Of a DNA stretch of 31,257 nucleotides, positions 2,544-9,323 are shown in pieces; position 1 is the first letter of the stretch, and each line of letters starts with the position of its first letter. The position numbers and the translations under genes are program-made. This DNA is from Promethearchaeota archaeon. GTDB lineage: Archaea > Asgardarchaeota > Lokiarchaeia > Sigyniarchaeales > SOKP01. The stretch covers positions 3,027 through 34,283 of the forward strand of contig SHMW01000044.1 of NCBI GenBank assembly GCA_008080735.1. The letters run 5' to 3'. The notes beneath the pieces were generated by a model that was not told the DNA's origin, searched no databases, and worked only from the letters and a program-made list of their open reading frames with translations.

Positions 2544-3659
2544 TTAAAGCAAATCCTCCGGTATTCCATCTCTGAAATATTCAGCTCTTGTGATCCAATT
2601 CTCAGAAAATTCTGGGATCATGGTAAGAATTGATCCTCCCACCCAAACCGAAAATGTTCGCTCACGTGGAGCCACGATCTTAATTGTTTGATCTTGCTTT
2701 TTCCTTCTAGCGAGTTCTAACTCCAGCTCTTGGTATAGTCTCGCTTTAAGATTAGGAAACATTGACGATCCACCCGAGATAAAGATATTATCTAAGAGCT
2801 CTTGACGAATATCGAGATCACACTTTTGAATTACATCCATTATGGCCTTGTGTAGTGGTTTATGTTCGGATTCTTGAGTGGGAGTGAATAAGAGCTCAGG
2901 TACCATAAAGCGTTCTTTACTTAAAGTAATGGTTGAACCATCAGGTAAAGAATATTCCTTCTTGTATTGCTCTTTACGCTTTAAGTCTTCTTTATAATCT
3001 AACGAGATAAAGCACGCCTTTTCTTTAATTGCGCGAACGAGTTCTTTGCGAATAGAGGAGTCTACGTTGAAACCAGTGGTGTTTTTTAGTGTTTCTCCCA
3101 TATAGCGGGTAAGTATACGCCCTCCTATTTCAAGCGTTTCTATGGCGTGATCTAATTTAAAACTTTCATAAATGGGTGTGATTCTCGTTCCACTATCTCC
3201 TATCTCAACCACAAGCCCTGTTTGGAACCCTCCTGAATAAAGCGTGAGCATCGGATCGAGCACTGGATAAAACGCCATACATTGATAATTTTCCAAAAAA
3301 AGTTCAAAGAGCCGCTCGAGTTCTGCCCTCGGAAATAACGGATGCACCGCGAACAATACGTTCACCACTGTGGGGTCCACTCGCAAATTGTAAAACACGT
3401 AATCCATAATACGCTCAAAATAATTCCAATCAGTAATTCTCCCTTGTTCGATAGGACGATAAATCTTGTATAATCCCAGCGATTGAATCTCATCGCCCAC
3501 ATAAAGCTCTTGTTTCTGTTTCGTAAACTGTCCTTCGAAATCGGTATACTTTGGTTTGCCCACAATAGTGAAAAAGACCATTGATGGATTATCTTCACCA
3601 GAAAAGCCTACCTTACTGCTAAATTGACCTATATCCATTACTACGGTTAGATTTGGCAT
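2544..3659 (-). CDS. Divergent Asgard actin / actin-related protein (371 aa)
   Basis: Actin signatures DIGQFSSKVGF, YVGDE, PIEQGRITDW, TGLVVEIGD, IKEKACFI, YSLPDG, ERFMVPELLF, ISGGSSMFP, VWVGGSIL; start moved to ATG 3659 (MPNLTVVMD) to match the actin N-terminus. Confidence 0.93.
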   Translation of the reverse strand: MPNLTVVMDIGQFSSKVGFSGEDNPSMVFFTIVGKPKYTDFEGQFTKQKQELYVGDEIQSLGLYKIYRPIEQGRITDWNYFERIMDYVFYNLRVDPTVVNVLFAVHPLFPRAELERLFELFLENYQCMAFYPVLDPMLTLYSGGFQTGLVVEIGDSGTRITPIYESFKLDHAIETLEIGGRILTRYMGETLKNTTGFNVDSSIRKELVRAIKEKACFISLDYKEDLKRKEQYKKEYSLPDGSTITLSKERFMVPELLFTPTQESEHKPLHKAIMDVIQKCDLDIRQELLDNIFISGGSSMFPNLKARLYQELELELARRKKQDQTIKIVAPRERTFSVWVGGSILTMIPEFSENWITRAEYFRDGIPEDLL

Positions 3660-3710
3660 TTGATTGAAGCTCGATTTTTCCTTCAAATAAACGATATTGA
3701 TTAATAAATA
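3633..3710. repeat. Direct repeat copy 1 (att-like): actin codons 1-9 plus upstream region
   Basis: atccattactacggttagatttggcatttga...gattaataaata matches 5926-6002; first 31 bp identical, then 2 substitutions and 1 indel. Confidence 0.95.
3701..3710 (-). promoter_or_regulatory. Putative TATA box of the actin gene
   Basis: TATTTATTAA on the minus strand 42-51 nt upstream of ATG 3659, conserved in both repeat copies; AT-rich background weakens the call. Confidence 0.4.
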
Positions 3711-4046
3711 TATCAAAGATTAAAAAAGTTTTATTCATTTTCGCTCTATTTAAACTGCAGGGGAATATTGGTATAACCCCTTTCTTGAATCCTCAGAGAT
3801 TCTAATGATGGCAGAACTGCACTTATAAAAGGAATTGTCAGTACCTTAGTAGGTGCTGATTAATTATTTCTTGATTGGTGATAGTATTCATTGAAGCGAA
3901 CATCTTTGTTAATCTCTCATTTCTCTTCTTTTATTATGATTGAGGGGAGGGAAATTAAGCCATCTTTGTGGAGTTATTGAAATGCTTTCCTTTTTCTTAT
4001 TACTTTACAAATCTCTAGGTAATAAGCTCAATCAAAAACATAGTAG

Positions 4047-4195
4047 TAATCCAAAGACTAACTTGGTCTATGCTTGGGGAAAAAATATTCTTTTAAAAGG
4101 GGAAGGAAGGGGAGTATATCATTCTCATAACTTTAATTGCTTGTAAAGAAAGAGGATTATAGATTGTATTCGCAGCAAAATAAGAAAAAAAGAAA
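4047..4195. repeat. Degenerate internal direct repeat R1
   Basis: Shares ordered blocks agactaact, gaaaaa, ttctttt, aaagggga, aggaagggg, tatat, ataactttaa, aaagaaag, ataagaa with 5144-5306. Confidence 0.75.
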
Positions 4196-4288
4196 GGAAT
4201 CTCTTTTCCCCAAATATAAGAGTAATATCAATCTTATTAAATGATATCAATAATTATATATCTTAGCATTGCTATAGTATTAATGATT

Positions 4289-4810
4289 ATGGTAAAATTA
4301 TTTTTTGATGCATGTTCTCTAATTTATATAACAAAGATCAATTTGAAAGAGCATCTTCCCGCATTAGGAAAAATTTATGTAAGTCAGAGTGTAAAAGAAG
4401 AATTAATAAGTGATTTGGAAAGATTTGATGATGCAAAGGTTCTCAATGAGAATATTAACCACAAACTAATAAATATTAGGAATTTTAAACGCACTAATCG
4501 ATTTTCGAATCGAAATTTAGGACTTGGAGAAAAAGATACGATTGAGTTATGTTTAAAAGAGGATGGAGTTTTAGTAACAGATGATCATAAAGCTCTTAAC
4601 TTAGCTTTAGGTATTGGTTTAAAACCTAAGACTTCAGAAATAATTCTTTTAGATTTTCTCAAGAATTCAATCATATCATACGAAAATTTTAAAAATTCAT
4701 TTTGGGAACTTGCTCGAATAAAAACTTTAAATCCAGAAATAATAGCTTTTTTATTTGATAAAGCAAAAGAAATGATTAAACCCAGAAATCAAAATAAAGG
4801 AGAAAAATAA
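4289..4810 (+). CDS. PIN-domain protein (VapC/DUF3368-like toxin)
   Basis: FFDACSLI, VKEEL, LGLGEKDTI, LVTDD PIN acidic motifs; ATG 4289 preferred over 4241. Confidence 0.85.
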   Translation: MVKLFFDACSLIYITKINLKEHLPALGKIYVSQSVKEELISDLERFDDAKVLNENINHKLINIRNFKRTNRFSNRNLGLGEKDTIELCLKEDGVLVTDDHKALNLALGIGLKPKTSEIILLDFLKNSIISYENFKNSFWELARIKTLNPEIIAFLFDKAKEMIKPRNQNKGEK

Positions 4811-4813
4811 TAT

Positions 4814-5101
4814 ATGACTAAACAGATGAATTTAAGGTTGGATGAGGATCTAATCAGAGAATTTGAGGAGCTAGCTGAAGAAGAAAACTTAGATCGTTCA
4901 GCTCTGGTAAAAAAAATTCTAGTTGAGGGTTTACAACAAGAACGGTTGAACTTTGCTATTCAAAAATATATGACCAAGGATATTTCAATCGAACGAGCTG
5001 CTGAAATCGCAAAACTTTCGATTCATGAGCTCATTTCAAACCTCTCGAAATTAGGTGTTCCATCGAATTTAACACCAGAAGATATTGAAAGAATTATCTA
5101 A
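4814..5101 (+). CDS. RHH + HTH antitoxin (UPF0175-like)
   Basis: N-terminal RHH pattern (QMNLRLDEDL...DRSALVKKIL) and C-terminal ISIERAAEIAKLS; GGAG SD; 3 nt after the PIN gene. Confidence 0.85.
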   Translation: MTKQMNLRLDEDLIREFEELAEEENLDRSALVKKILVEGLQQERLNFAIQKYMTKDISIERAAEIAKLSIHELISNLSKLGVPSNLTPEDIERII

Positions 5102-5143
5102 ATCTTGTGAGGTTTGCTTTTAAGTAAAGCTTGAATATTTTCT

Positions 5144-5306
5144 TAATTCACAGACTAACTGAGTCTCCGCGTTTAGAAAAAGATTTCTTTTCTCAAAGGG
5201 GAGAGAAAGGAAGGGGGCTATATACCGTCAAAATAACTTTAAATGTTAAAAAAGAAAGCGGAGTATGAAATTATATTCTCAAATAGAAATATAAGAAGAA
5301 AAAGAA
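5144..5306. repeat. Degenerate internal direct repeat R2
   Basis: Collinear similarity to 4047-4195. Confidence 0.75.
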
Positions 5307-5335
5307 TTAATTTACAAAAATCTAAAATCTCTGCT

Positions 5336-5835
5336 TTACCGCTCAAGAATGTTTTTATAAGGATTCCATGTGTCCTAAAAATGGGTGTAATCCGCATAAT
5401 TCAGCTTGACTTAGCAATTAAAGTTCACATCGCTGACTTTATGGCAGAATAAAATCTTCCGATCCTCTTTCGGACAGCCCATCCGTTTATATAATGTGTT
5501 CAAGGTTCTGCGGAAGGTGTGATATGAGGTCCACTTACTGATCTCAAAGTGGAGCATCGTTTTTCTGATGTAATGATTGATGATGCGGAGTACATACCGT
5601 TTATTTCGCGTGGATAAAAATGATGCATCATTATCCGTAATCTTATGCTTCTGCTCTTGCATGTAAGATTTCAAAACAGTCTGCCAGATTTTCGGAAAAA
5701 TAGTAGATCTTCCTGCCCATTTTTCCCTACGCCTCTATGTAGTGTTTTTTTAGAGTTAAATCGACAAAATCTATACTAATCAGTTCGCCGATCCGCATCC
5801 CCGTTTCAGAAAGAGTAATATCCACTTTAAAAGAG
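5336..5835 (-). pseudogene. Tyrosine recombinase/integrase catalytic domain, pseudogene
   Basis: Manual translation: LSETGMRIGEL...EA*GKMG...(frameshift near 5675)...HTFRRTLN...ILFCH...VNFNC*VKLNY...F*DTWNPY; three in-frame stops, one frameshift, no N-terminal domain. Confidence 0.88.
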
Positions 5836-5925
5836 AAATAACACGTTTAAATTTATCATATATCGACTGATGGACTAATAATACAACAACAAAGATAGAT
5901 ACACAATATCGCATAAGGAAAGGTA

Positions 5926-6002
5926 ATCCATTACTACGGTTAGATTTGGCATTTGAATGAAGCTCGATTTTTCATCAAATAAACGATATTGATTAATAAA
6001 TA
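5926..6002. repeat. Direct repeat copy 2 (att-like): displaced actin 5' end
   Basis: Encodes MPNLTVVMD on the minus strand from ATG 5952, then diverges and stops after 25 codons. Confidence 0.95.
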
Positions 6003-6087
6003 AATTATTGACTAAAAAATTTTGATATAAAATCTAGAGATATCGACATTATCTTTCTCTATAGATTTTTGATTCTGATTATTTTAA

Positions 6088-6837
6088 TTATCCTAACAAT
6101 ATTTTAAGAGGGGTATAGGTGGTCTCGGGTATGAACGCTTCACCAAATTTCGTATTGATTTCATTTCCACGTAAAACAGCGGTATCTTCTGCCCAATCGA
6201 TCACTCGTTTCAGCACTTCCTTTTGTGATTTGTAGATTCGGGAAAAAATTTCCTTTTTTTCCTTCCAATAATCTTCAATATCAACGATGACAAACACCGA
6301 CCCTTCAATATATTGGAACTTACACGATGGCGATTCATAATAATAAACCCCTAAGGGCGTCCAACTTCTACTATGTCCGCCGTAGGCTTTGCCAGTTGCG
6401 CAATGATAGATACTTTCGCGCACAATTAATGAAAGGTTTCGATGGACCCTATGGAAATCAGAAAAATGAGGCAGCATTACTACATGCGGTCGTAGATCTC
6501 TAATCAAATTAGTAATCTTCGAGACCTTATCGCGATTAATCTGTAAATCTTGATATCCAAGTTCGATAACATCGGCATTTAAAATTTCACTCACATCTTC
6601 CAACTCTTCTTCCCGTGTGGTCGCGATATTGTGCTTCTCCTCCTGTTTCGCATAACCGCCAAGACCAGGGGTGGCAATGATAATAGAGATTTCAGAACCG
6701 AGGGCGTTATATTTGAGAATCGTCCCTCCACACGAGATTAATTCGTCATCGGGATGAGGTGCAAAGATCATTAAGCGTTTGGGAATTACAATTGGAACTT
6801 CGTGATCTTCACAGATAATATGCTTTTTGTTTAACAT
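6088..6837 (-). CDS. PIG-L/LmbE family deacetylase
   Basis: APHPDDE metal motif, REEEL, PHFSDFHRVH, C-terminal GEAF. Confidence 0.92.
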   Translation of the reverse strand: MLNKKHIICEDHEVPIVIPKRLMIFAPHPDDELISCGGTILKYNALGSEISIIIATPGLGGYAKQEEKHNIATTREEELEDVSEILNADVIELGYQDLQINRDKVSKITNLIRDLRPHVVMLPHFSDFHRVHRNLSLIVRESIYHCATGKAYGGHSRSWTPLGVYYYESPSCKFQYIEGSVFVIVDIEDYWKEKKEIFSRIYKSQKEVLKRVIDWAEDTAVLRGNEINTKFGEAFIPETTYTPLKILLG

Positions 6838-6961: not shown

Positions 6962-7765
6962 CTATTCGCCACGCATTATTTTCTTTAGGCGGTTTAATTC
7001 ATCCAACATTTCATCTCGTAATGAACTTAGCCCGCCACCTGCTTTAGGTGCGCCAGGTTGTCCGCCTCCTCCCGGAGCTGAACTTGGTGGACCTCCCCCT
7101 CCGGATGGTGCTTTTGGGGGGCCTGAACTTGGTGCCTTTGGTTGACCTGATGATGGAGCCTTAGGCGGGCCACCTCCTCCGGTTGGTGCTTTTGGGGGTC
7201 CTGAACTTGGTGCCTTTGGTGGACCTGATGATGGAGCCTTAGGCGGGCCACCTCCTCCAGATGGTGCTTTTGGTGGTCCCGAACTTGGTGCCTTTGGTGG
7301 ACCTCCAGCTCCAGATGGTGGTGAGGGTAAATTCGATTTTTTAGGTGGTCCCGAACTTGGTGCTTTCGGAGGACCTGATGATGGAGCCTTAGGTGGGCCA
7401 CCCCCTCCGGATGATGCTTTTGGAGGGCCTCCACCTGAAGACGGTGGTGTAGGTGCATTTGCCCCGGCGGATGCCGCGGGTGCTGAGCTGGCTGGAGCCG
7501 CTTGCTTGCCGCTTAATAAACTAAATAAGGTATTTGCAGCTGTCGATTTCGCATCTCCAGCGGGAGCGACTACTTTCTGAGATGAAGTACTCACTGTTTT
7601 AACCTTTTCAACCTTAATTCCCTTCAGATCCTTCTCAGCCTTTTGGAGGGAATCAATGAAATCATTTATATTTTTTACTGTCCCTTCTAATTCGTCAGCT
7701 AAGTTGGTCAAGCCTTTTTTCATAAAATCGATAACTCTACTGATTTTCTTCTTATCGGATGCCAC
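6962..7765 (-). CDS. Pro/Gly/Ser-rich repeat protein with N-terminal coiled coil and C-terminal helix
   Basis: GTG start with GAGGA upstream; about 12 GPPKAPSS-type units whose DNA varies mostly at synonymous positions in this frame. Confidence 0.85.
   Translation of the reverse strand: MASDKKKISRVIDFMKKGLTNLADELEGTVKNINDFIDSLQKAEKDLKGIKVEKVKTVSTSSQKVVAPAGDAKSTAANTLFSLLSGKQAAPASSAPAASAGANAPTPPSSGGGPPKASSGGGGPPKAPSSGPPKAPSSGPPKKSNLPSPPSGAGGPPKAPSSGPPKAPSGGGGPPKAPSSGPPKAPSSGPPKAPTGGGGPPKAPSSGQPKAPSSGPPKAPSGGGGPPSSAPGGGGQPGAPKAGGGLSSLRDEMLDELNRLKKIMRGE
7085..7435. repeat. Coding tandem repeat: 24-30 bp units within a 78 bp higher-order unit
   Basis: gacctgatgatggagccttagg recurs at 7144, 7222 and 7372. 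Confidence 0.85.
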
Positions 7766-8056: not shown

Positions 8057-8962
8057 ATGCTAGAGTTTGAAAAAGAACAAAAAGTTATTGAAATTGCCGA
8101 CGTGAAAATTGGTGGTCAACCGGGAGAAAATTCAGTGGTTGCCGTTGGATCAGTGTTTTATTCAAAGCATGACGCCCTCAAGAATGAAAAGACGGGTGAA
8201 TTTGACAAAGATATGGTTGAGGAAGAAATCAATGAATTTATGACAATTGTGGATGAAACCAATCTTCAAGCGATCATTGATGTTGTTGGTGCTAATCCAG
8301 ACGCACTCATAAAGGAATGTAAATTTGTCGCGGATTTAGTCGATATTCCCTTCTTAGTGGACGGATTAAACGATGAAATTCGTATTCCTGCGATGGAAGG
8401 GATGAAAGAAGCGGGTTTGTTGGATAGAGCAATTTTAAACAGTATTGATGATAACACAAATGAAGAAGACGTAGGAAAATTGAAGGAAATTGGAGTTAAA
8501 AACGCTGTATTGCTGACTTTTGGGACACGCTACATCTTTCCAGAGCAAAAATTATCTTTCTTAAAAGATGATCTCATTCCGAAAGCTGAAAGAGCGGGAA
8601 TTAAGAACATTATTGTTGATACAGCTGTACTTGATTTGGCATCGCTTTCACTTAATTATGAGACTACTCGATTAGTAAAGAATGAATTGGGACTTCCAGC
8701 AGGGTATGCCCCTTCGAATGGAGTGTACGGATGGGATTTTGTAAAACAATATGGGGATGAAACGAGAGCCGCGGGAATCGCTGCAGCAATGGTAAACGCC
8801 TTAGATGCGGGAAGTGATTTCATCCTCTACGGTCCAATTAAGTTCTCCAAATGGATTATCCCATCTTTGGCACTTATAGAAGCAACTAACTCGTACTACA
8901 GAAAACGAATATTAAGGAAAAACGTGTCTGATAAAACTCCACTAAACAAGATATTTAAATAA
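8057..8962 (+). CDS. mtrH: Tetrahydromethanopterin S-methyltransferase subunit H family methyltransferase
   Basis: KIGGQPGE, GSVFY, AILNSI, IVDTAV, LPAGYAPSN, DFILYGPI are typical of MtrH/MtxH/MtgA. Confidence 0.88.
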   Translation: MLEFEKEQKVIEIADVKIGGQPGENSVVAVGSVFYSKHDALKNEKTGEFDKDMVEEEINEFMTIVDETNLQAIIDVVGANPDALIKECKFVADLVDIPFLVDGLNDEIRIPAMEGMKEAGLLDRAILNSIDDNTNEEDVGKLKEIGVKNAVLLTFGTRYIFPEQKLSFLKDDLIPKAERAGIKNIIVDTAVLDLASLSLNYETTRLVKNELGLPAGYAPSNGVYGWDFVKQYGDETRAAGIAAAMVNALDAGSDFILYGPIKFSKWIIPSLALIEATNSYYRKRILRKNVSDKTPLNKIFK

Positions 8963-9323
8963 CAAGAGCTAGAAGTGATTAATTCTTTATTGATTAATAT
9001 TTTCTTTTTATTTTCAAAACTCTTTACTTTAAGTATTCCATTCTTGCGAGAAATGAAATATTGGTTGAATTTATCCAAATATGTAAAAGGTCTATTGCTC
9101 GATCTTTTTAATACCATAATTCATTCGATTTCTCTTGAATGAGACGGAACAATTTAAAAAACATCAATTCTTAAAAAGGCTAATTTATATATTTTATTAT
9201 AATAATTTGCATAATTAGTATTAAAGGAAAAAGTTCTTAATACTTAATTAATCAAGATTATTAGACTTTAAATTATAATTGAATTATTAATATAGACAAT
9301 ACAACACTGTAAGTGGGAAAAAA

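Follow-up and report, generated by a model that had tools for sequence, protein, structure and literature searches.

The 31,257-nt window of a Promethearchaeota archaeon contig analyzed here (coordinates are positions in this window, and minus-strand features are marked (-)) contains an actin-family gene whose start region is present twice. The two copies form a direct repeat (3633-3710 and 5926-6002) made up of a perfect 31-bp block, 3633-3663, followed by two substitutions and one indel; weaker similarity extends to 3734 and 6026, giving 102 bp with 90% identity overall. The repeat takes in the first nine codons of the gene, which lies on the minus strand with its ATG at 3659, together with the 50-75 bp upstream, and its perfect block adjoins the junction. 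Chance alone would give about 2e-9 perfect 31-mer pairs in the window, and the repeat has no further copies in the 4.1-Mb genome. Judging from sequence comparison, the 2.2 kb between the copies are a dead stack of tyrosine-recombinase cassette units of Promethearchaeota (Loki): the C-terminal half of an integrase, a family repeat termed R, a toxin-antitoxin (TA) pair, a second R and the start of a second integrase. A preliminary description of this DNA had reported a 78/77-bp direct repeat with a 31-bp perfect core, which aligns as described, and a tyrosine-recombinase remnant and TA pair between the copies, which were recovered as well (Pfam Phage_integrase, E 5e-5; PIN / RHH-UPF0175 pair). 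The features of the locus are the following (ORF, open reading frame).

2544-3659 (-): intact gene for an actin-related protein (ARP-like paralogue) of 371 aa; Pfam Actin, E 2.5e-88
3633-3734 (-): functional copy of the doubled start region, covering codons 1-9 and the 75 bp before them; no differences within 3633-3663, three within 3664-3710, and diverged within 3711-3734
3735-3840 (-): 106-bp segment, the fixed right end of the insert, about 90% alike in the sister species by locus comparison
3841-3904 (-): final bases of the accessory ORF172, and another integrase copy truncated to codons 1-17 (3891-3841), from the family alignment
3905-4046 (-): DNA flanking repeat R, 73% similar to the corresponding stretch of an R-TA-R unit in a different genome (L362)
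4047-4194 (-): repeat R, copy 2, a non-coding family repeat of about 160 bp, usually behind the integrase gene (repeat alignment)
4241-4810 (+): PIN-domain (DUF3368) toxin of the TA pair, probable start at 4289 (domain matches)
4814-5101 (+): RHH / UPF0175 antitoxin (domain match)
5143-5306 (-): repeat R, copy 1, immediately after the stop of the integrase, the position it also has in intact relatives (repeat alignment)
5339-5813 (-): dead C-terminal half of an integrase, residues 145-302 of the 302-aa family protein, 71-77% identical to P0001 and P0002
5814-5915 (-): about 100 bp lacking a left-end arm, with no informative match
5916-5925 (-): family core motif TACCTTTCCT, starting exactly at the end of the actin stub (motif scan)
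5926-6026 (-): stranded original start region with codons 1-9 (the stub), decaying, from repeat alignment and allele comparison
6088-6837 (-): PIG-L deacetylase gene, the usual upstream neighbor (domain match and synteny)

The actin-related gene and its empty sites

The gene with the doubled start had been described simply as an actin gene. It does belong to the actin family, but it is an ARP-like paralogue and not the lokiactin. Lokiarchaea have one lokiactin and several actin-related paralogues (PMC9834061). The lokiactin is taken to be the most conserved, eukaryote-like actin of its genome, and the window gene does not hold that place, since its scores against solved actins (263-290 bits) lie below those of the lokiactin-like gene on contig C109 of the same genome (532-633 bits), to which it is 40% identical. 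It is therefore best classed as a divergent actin-related paralogue. One orthologue was found in 115 of the 134 family genomes searched.

The copy of the start region that adjoins the gene probably holds the promoter, as suggested by a conserved AT-rich block. The 371-aa frame is intact, in agreement with the earlier proposal that the gene was kept whole by a spare start region at the far end of the insert. The stub shows three differences from the working copy, and more of them are found in L352, the same locus in an independent assembly.

When 109 orthologous loci of the actin-related gene were compared, 87 had the PIG-L gene or a gene for a proline-rich protein within 350 bp of the start codon. 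None of the 109 showed a 5' duplication, the integrase or the R repeat (longest exact match 15, versus 31 in the window). In locus L351, from a sister species with 87% nucleotide identity in the gene, the gap between PIG-L and the ATG is 136 bp, exactly as predicted from removal of the insert. Insertion into a conserved PIG-L-actin junction with an empty site in relatives, as had been suggested, is thus supported by L351 and by other loci, which are empty too. A replacement 5' end and, in relatives, an empty site, by which gene-targeting elements are recognized, are thus both present. L358, whose actin site is empty, was left out of this tally: at either end it has a 99-bp overlap with L360, the insert contig of its own sample, so that the site could be a collapsed repeat.

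Other arrangements were also seen in this neighborhood. Two loci of the same genus, L038 (genome G005) and L041 (G004), have an ORF of 1,312-1,318 aa in place of PIG-L upstream of the actin-related gene, and about ten other genomes carry single unrelated genes in the gap. A coiled-coil, proline-rich protein is encoded in the window at 6962-7765 (-), two genes upstream of the actin-related gene, and this order is found in most family genomes.

The S/R cassette family

Close relatives of the 302-aa integrase were found only in Asgard records, nearly all of them Promethearchaeota; the family set compared consists of 162 loci, partly overlapping and amounting to 1.26 Mb in all. In the intact layout, a site of about 50 bp that ends in the core motif (the S site) is followed by a left-end arm, a 172-aa accessory ORF (ORF172), the integrase and R. 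The window remnant belongs to this family, being an integrase of the 302-aa type with R directly behind it. It is split, with residues 145-302 lying at 5813-5339 and residues 1-17 at 3891-3841, and the larger piece has a frameshift near 5670 and three stops, one of them at the catalytic tyrosine codon (5413). An intact cognate integrase is thus not found beside the repeat. In the sister species the N-terminal piece is preceded by an S site, a left-end arm and an ORF172 pseudogene. Of the unit ends, the core motif is present in the window at 5925, with no left-end arm behind it and no S arm at the far end, and the window itself contains no full S site. The 106-bp segment at the right end of the insert has no other match among 154 genomes. 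The interval 3748-3850 was considered as a captured gene end and rejected, as no homologue was found in the loci, the own genome or the 154 genomes.

The R copies bracket the TA pair as a direct repeat with 70% identity, and R has no Rfam match; it may be a second end or a recombination site of the family. The same R-TA block (89%) occurs in genome G003, away from actin, as does a unit in which R copies with the same R flank surround another TA pair. We also observed that the last few bases of R are those in which the S arm ends, and that the TA pair enclosed by R varies from genome to genome (4047-4194 and 5143-5306 in the window; L362:6793-7871; L098, L090).

S sites also stand without an integrase, in one orientation, between gene-sized units. 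They were detected in 109 of the 134 family genomes, versus 21 of 134 for the integrase, and they form arrays with up to nine S sites in 12 kb (L331-L350, L081-L112). Most family arrays are bounded by S sites and not by host duplications, and internal deletions are common. The genome of the window has S sites at C31:1794 and 2406 and at C66:13400 and 16062 (L217, L218). An intact relative, P0002, is located 2.8 kb past the end of contig C31 of this genome; the contig that carries it is 99.3% identical to C31 and comes from the sample of L352. Lone S sites occur 0.8-1 kb upstream of the actin-related gene in L233 and L234.

Several further family loci should be mentioned. At L101:10001-11809 and the start of C31, the intact integrase gene 2.8 kb past the C31 end has an RHH-PemK pair and then R behind it, with an S pair and a histone gene close by. 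In L091, too, a family unit abuts a histone gene. A 307-aa XerA-like tyrosine recombinase, 27% identical to the family integrase, is encoded at C66:16827-17750, just downstream of an S site with a right flank of a second recurring type. In two genomes, S arrays end about 100 bp before a tRNA-Ala(GGC) gene or surround it (L088:11856-12025, L343:6557-10957), and this gene is not doubled. A general preference for tRNA targets was considered and rejected, as only this one tRNA-Ala stands beside family loci.

Occupied alleles and the origin of the duplication

The sister species that includes L351 also holds an insert, in L353 and L360, two data sets that are identical where they overlap. The right end (about 90%) and the TA-R block (95%) of this insert correspond to those of the window insert, whereas the integrase C-terminal half is absent. 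It starts with actin nucleotides up to 179 (60 codons), so that the duplication is at least 233 bp long, spanning at least -54 to +179, compared with 78-102 bp, to codon 9/10, in the window. The left junction therefore differs from that of the window, and it has no core motif. Over nucleotides 81-179 the sister-species stub is 100% identical to the gene of its own strain, from which the species of the window differs at 14 of 99 positions and a 97%-identical strain at 8 of 99. Likewise, the window stub carries the allele of its own species at codon 6. In its upstream part, the spare copy is closer to L357 and seems to come from a donor. The common right end has diverged by about 10%; the host genes are 87-89% identical.

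The ten bases that follow the stub in the window are the core motif, ranking second among 62,494 window positions, a score reached at 1e-5 of genome positions. The actin-side end has no S arm (scores of -35 and -54, versus a median of +49), and junctions that start at the core motif without an S arm exist in relatives, for example in L319. The left junction falls exactly on the core motif, which makes a single cut by the integrase probable, at a secondary site in codon 9/10, and the intact relative just past the end of C31 makes action in trans plausible. Conservation spans the motif. Cleavage by tyrosine recombinases takes place at both edges of the overlap, and exchange of one strand at the near edge would agree with this. 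A core-like 9-mer on the plus strand, in actin codons 10-13, was considered as attB and rejected, being in the wrong orientation; such 8-mers have a frequency of 6.5e-5 per position, with 539 in the genome.

Start-region duplications were also found elsewhere. In L358, of the sister species, the stretch of the PIG-L gene between -105 and about +185 is doubled (3431-3624 and 9010-9300; 97% identity, with a 95-bp deletion in the stub) around a 5.4-kb insert that differs from the actin insert. At the start of this insert are the remains of a left end, a stub of ORF172 and a TA pair, and its first 1.07 kb are 98.6% identical to a locus in G003; the junction is also present in sequencing run X4. 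In L136 a 411-bp, 88% copy of the start region of a gene for a 545-aa membrane protein lies around an integrase remnant (2014-2424 and 8355-8765), with a third copy of a 45-bp upstream block at 4753-4797; this copy may be a paralogue stub. As a separate observation, a small-GTPase-like gene on contig C2 of the window's genome has its 3' end doubled (297 bp, 92%; 99219-99514 and 101639-101935) around a PIN / RHH pair, where no S or R site was found.

Our preferred reading of these alleles, to which we give a somewhat better than even chance, is homology-anchored re-insertion of a cassette stack that carried a captured upstream region and was stabilized by its TA pair. The far end of the stack appears to have been fused once to a copied upstream region of the actin-related gene, as this end is common to the two sister species and its junction shows no family signature. 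The captured region would then be the homology anchor for re-insertion at the gene start. Recombination between a point in the stack and a point in the working gene could give a circle, or could take the form of unequal crossover between chromosome copies, and homologous recombination into an empty copy would leave a fresh, host-matched stub upstream and an intact gene downstream. The length of the stub would be set by the position of a one-off junction, at codon 9/10 in the window and codon 60 in the sister species. In the window this junction would probably be the work of an intact family integrase acting in trans, which cut its core motif and a secondary site in actin; a single strand exchange would have taken place, with replication or repair completing the event. 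Selection would retain only products in which the gene still has its promoter, and the TA pair would oppose pop-out between the repeats.

We favor re-insertion because the same right end is combined with different stub lengths and left junctions in two species, and because the stubs are host-matched (nucleotides 81-179 in the sister species, the codon 6 allele in the window). It is further favored by the anatomy of the insert, which is that of the family with its own end repeats, the core motif at the junction and no S arm at the actin side, and by the nearness of the intact relative P0002 together with a second start-region duplication around family debris, that of PIG-L in L358.

Several points weigh against this reading. 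Neither a circle nor a stub-less precursor allele was seen; contig graphs with k=31 cannot separate a circle from an integrated path, and read depth in runs X1-X4, given per contig, would not reveal a mixture of empty, filled and circular forms. The sister-species and PIG-L junctions score -14 and -27 and thus have no core motif, for which reason integrase action is argued for one junction only. It should be noted that the motif was chosen after the relatives had been viewed, which by our own estimate weakens the value of 1e-5 to about 1e-3 to 1e-4. Finally, gene conversion plus deletions accounts equally well for host-matched stubs.

Gene conversion is part of an alternative that is possible, at clearly less than even probability: one ancestral insertion with a long duplication (at least 60 codons), followed by vertical descent with conversion and separate deletions in each allele. 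In the window the deletion would have run from codon 9/10 to the core motif inside the stack, again probably through the integrase. The common right end has diverged about as much as the host genes have, internal deletions are frequent in the family, and re-insertion would be unnecessary. However, vertical descent requires complete and recent conversion over 233 bp, whereas the PIG-L duplication of the same assembly is only 97% identical and has a 95-bp deletion. Moreover, the window stub is decaying, and the sister strain represented by L351 is empty.

The wider proposal that an undescribed Lokiarchaeial cassette system routinely settles at conserved gene starts via long, variable, host-copied duplications, by which TA and other cassettes would enter core operons harmlessly, seems to us rather improbable; if true, start-region duplication as a regular way into operons would be an unusual insertion route. 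As a specific mechanism, one-sided strand exchange at a secondary site followed by repair would have to produce such duplications of promoters and 5' ends, and this we consider unlikely. Two adjacent genes, the actin-related gene and PIG-L, with three duplication lengths would agree with it, as would L136 as a possible third case with an integrase remnant inside and the finding that start-region duplications in the scanned orthologous loci occur only with family debris inside. However, both firm cases come from one operon of two sister species, the L136 copy may have another origin, only one junction has the core motif, and host duplications do not bound most family arrays.

The preliminary description had proposed that the repeat is an integrase attachment site, with the actin 5' end recognized as attB and the replacement start carried by attP, as in dusA islands; the cognate integrase would be the window remnant or one since lost. 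The identity of the repeat is highest next to the junction, the empty site is precise, the insert is present in two species and the spare copy seems donor-derived in its upstream part, all of which speak for this model. We nevertheless regard it as very unlikely. The occupied alleles have no fixed attL/attR core and crossover (codon 9/10 versus codon 60), and the allele with 233 bp, which has the same right end and a different junction, largely refutes the model. The end sequences of the family are others, S and R, and they are absent from the actin-side junction. Since the crossover is not fixed and the replacement is not element-borne, the stubs being host-matched, the repeat is not supported as an integrase attachment site. 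Nor does a family of elements targeting actin find support: no actin homologue and no link of integrase homologues to actin loci was detected in the 162 family loci, and none of the 109 orthologous loci is occupied. The claim of a mobile family aimed at an Asgard cytoskeletal gene is thereby removed.

An assembly artefact is practically eliminated: the 31-bp core does collapse in k=31 graphs (run X1), but the two repeat copies differ from each other, L352 is 98.9% identical to the window over the whole locus and has stub changes of its own, the actin-side copy is spanned by a contig of run X2, and all four arms are seen in X1. Runs X3-X5, which have small word shares, were used only where contigs of them could be compared.

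In our reading, the 5' end of the actin-related gene has thus been a homology anchor and a one-time secondary site, and not the attachment site of the family. Because the length of the duplication varies between strains and the family does not target actin, the duplication appears to be an accident of this lineage that selection has kept, rather than a dedicated landing site. Every occupied allele of the paralogue has an intact copy with its upstream region, which fits selection for expression.

Relation to known systems

SXT/R391 elements insert at prfC. As in these elements and in dusA islands, insertion at the 5' end has stranded the old start and supplied a new one, and the gene survives. 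Repair from the 5' side, of which the preliminary description was aware of no case, has already been described for dusA islands (PMC4482086, Farrugia et al. 2015). Those islands use an integrase family of their own and the same single target in more than 200 genomes, and 94 of them give a 21-bp attL/attR consensus. At the present locus, in contrast, the duplication ranges from 78 to at least 233 bp and is host-copied, and the integrase family was not found at actin in the loci compared.

In SSV-type elements the att site splits the integrase gene. The insert resembles these in having N- and C-terminal integrase pieces at opposite ends, in permuted order. However, joining across the repeat fails to restore residues 18-144, which are absent, the DNA adjoining the repeat has no integrase similarity, and the N-terminal piece comes from another unit in tandem, to which a separate S site and ORF172 belong. 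An SSV-type split integrase was therefore rejected.

Archaeal integrons and CALINs (clusters of attC sites lacking integron integrases) have been reported (PMC9668308, Ghaly et al. 2022). The S/R family is like them in its arrays of gene-sized units, with many TA pairs and one repeated site, in one orientation and often far from a tyrosine recombinase. Unlike in integrons, the integrase is not IntI (the intact relative P0001 scores 48.7 bits with TIGR02249, for which the cut-off is 265), and it resides in its own unit with an accessory ORF. In addition, the consensus of 127 S sites, judged by eye, has no attC cores RYYYAAC and GTTRRRY.

Integrated elements with a tyrosine integrase are also described from Asgard genomes, namely aloposons and HeimV1/V2 (PMC8813620) and Yucahu-i and other elements of Atabeyarchaeia (PMC11529989). 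In the available portions of these two papers such elements are located at tRNA genes or at an 11-bp motif, arrays of the S/R type and gene-start duplications are not described, and the word "actin" is absent from the available portion of PMC11529989. No description of the S/R cassette system was found in the literature searched, which mostly did not include subscription journals. The insert thus leads to a cassette system widespread in Promethearchaeota, with a non-IntI integrase of 302 aa and an accessory ORF, and its alleles hint at where this integrase cuts, with junctions at secondary sites being possible.

A parallel to the proposed re-insertion is found in specialized transduction and in F-prime formation, where aberrant excision captures flanking DNA and homologous re-integration follows. 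The present case differs in that the process is deduced from alleles alone and that what would move is neither phage nor plasmid but a few kb of dead cassettes. It is alike in that a mobile unit with host DNA would re-enter by homology, the duplication corresponding to the length that was captured.

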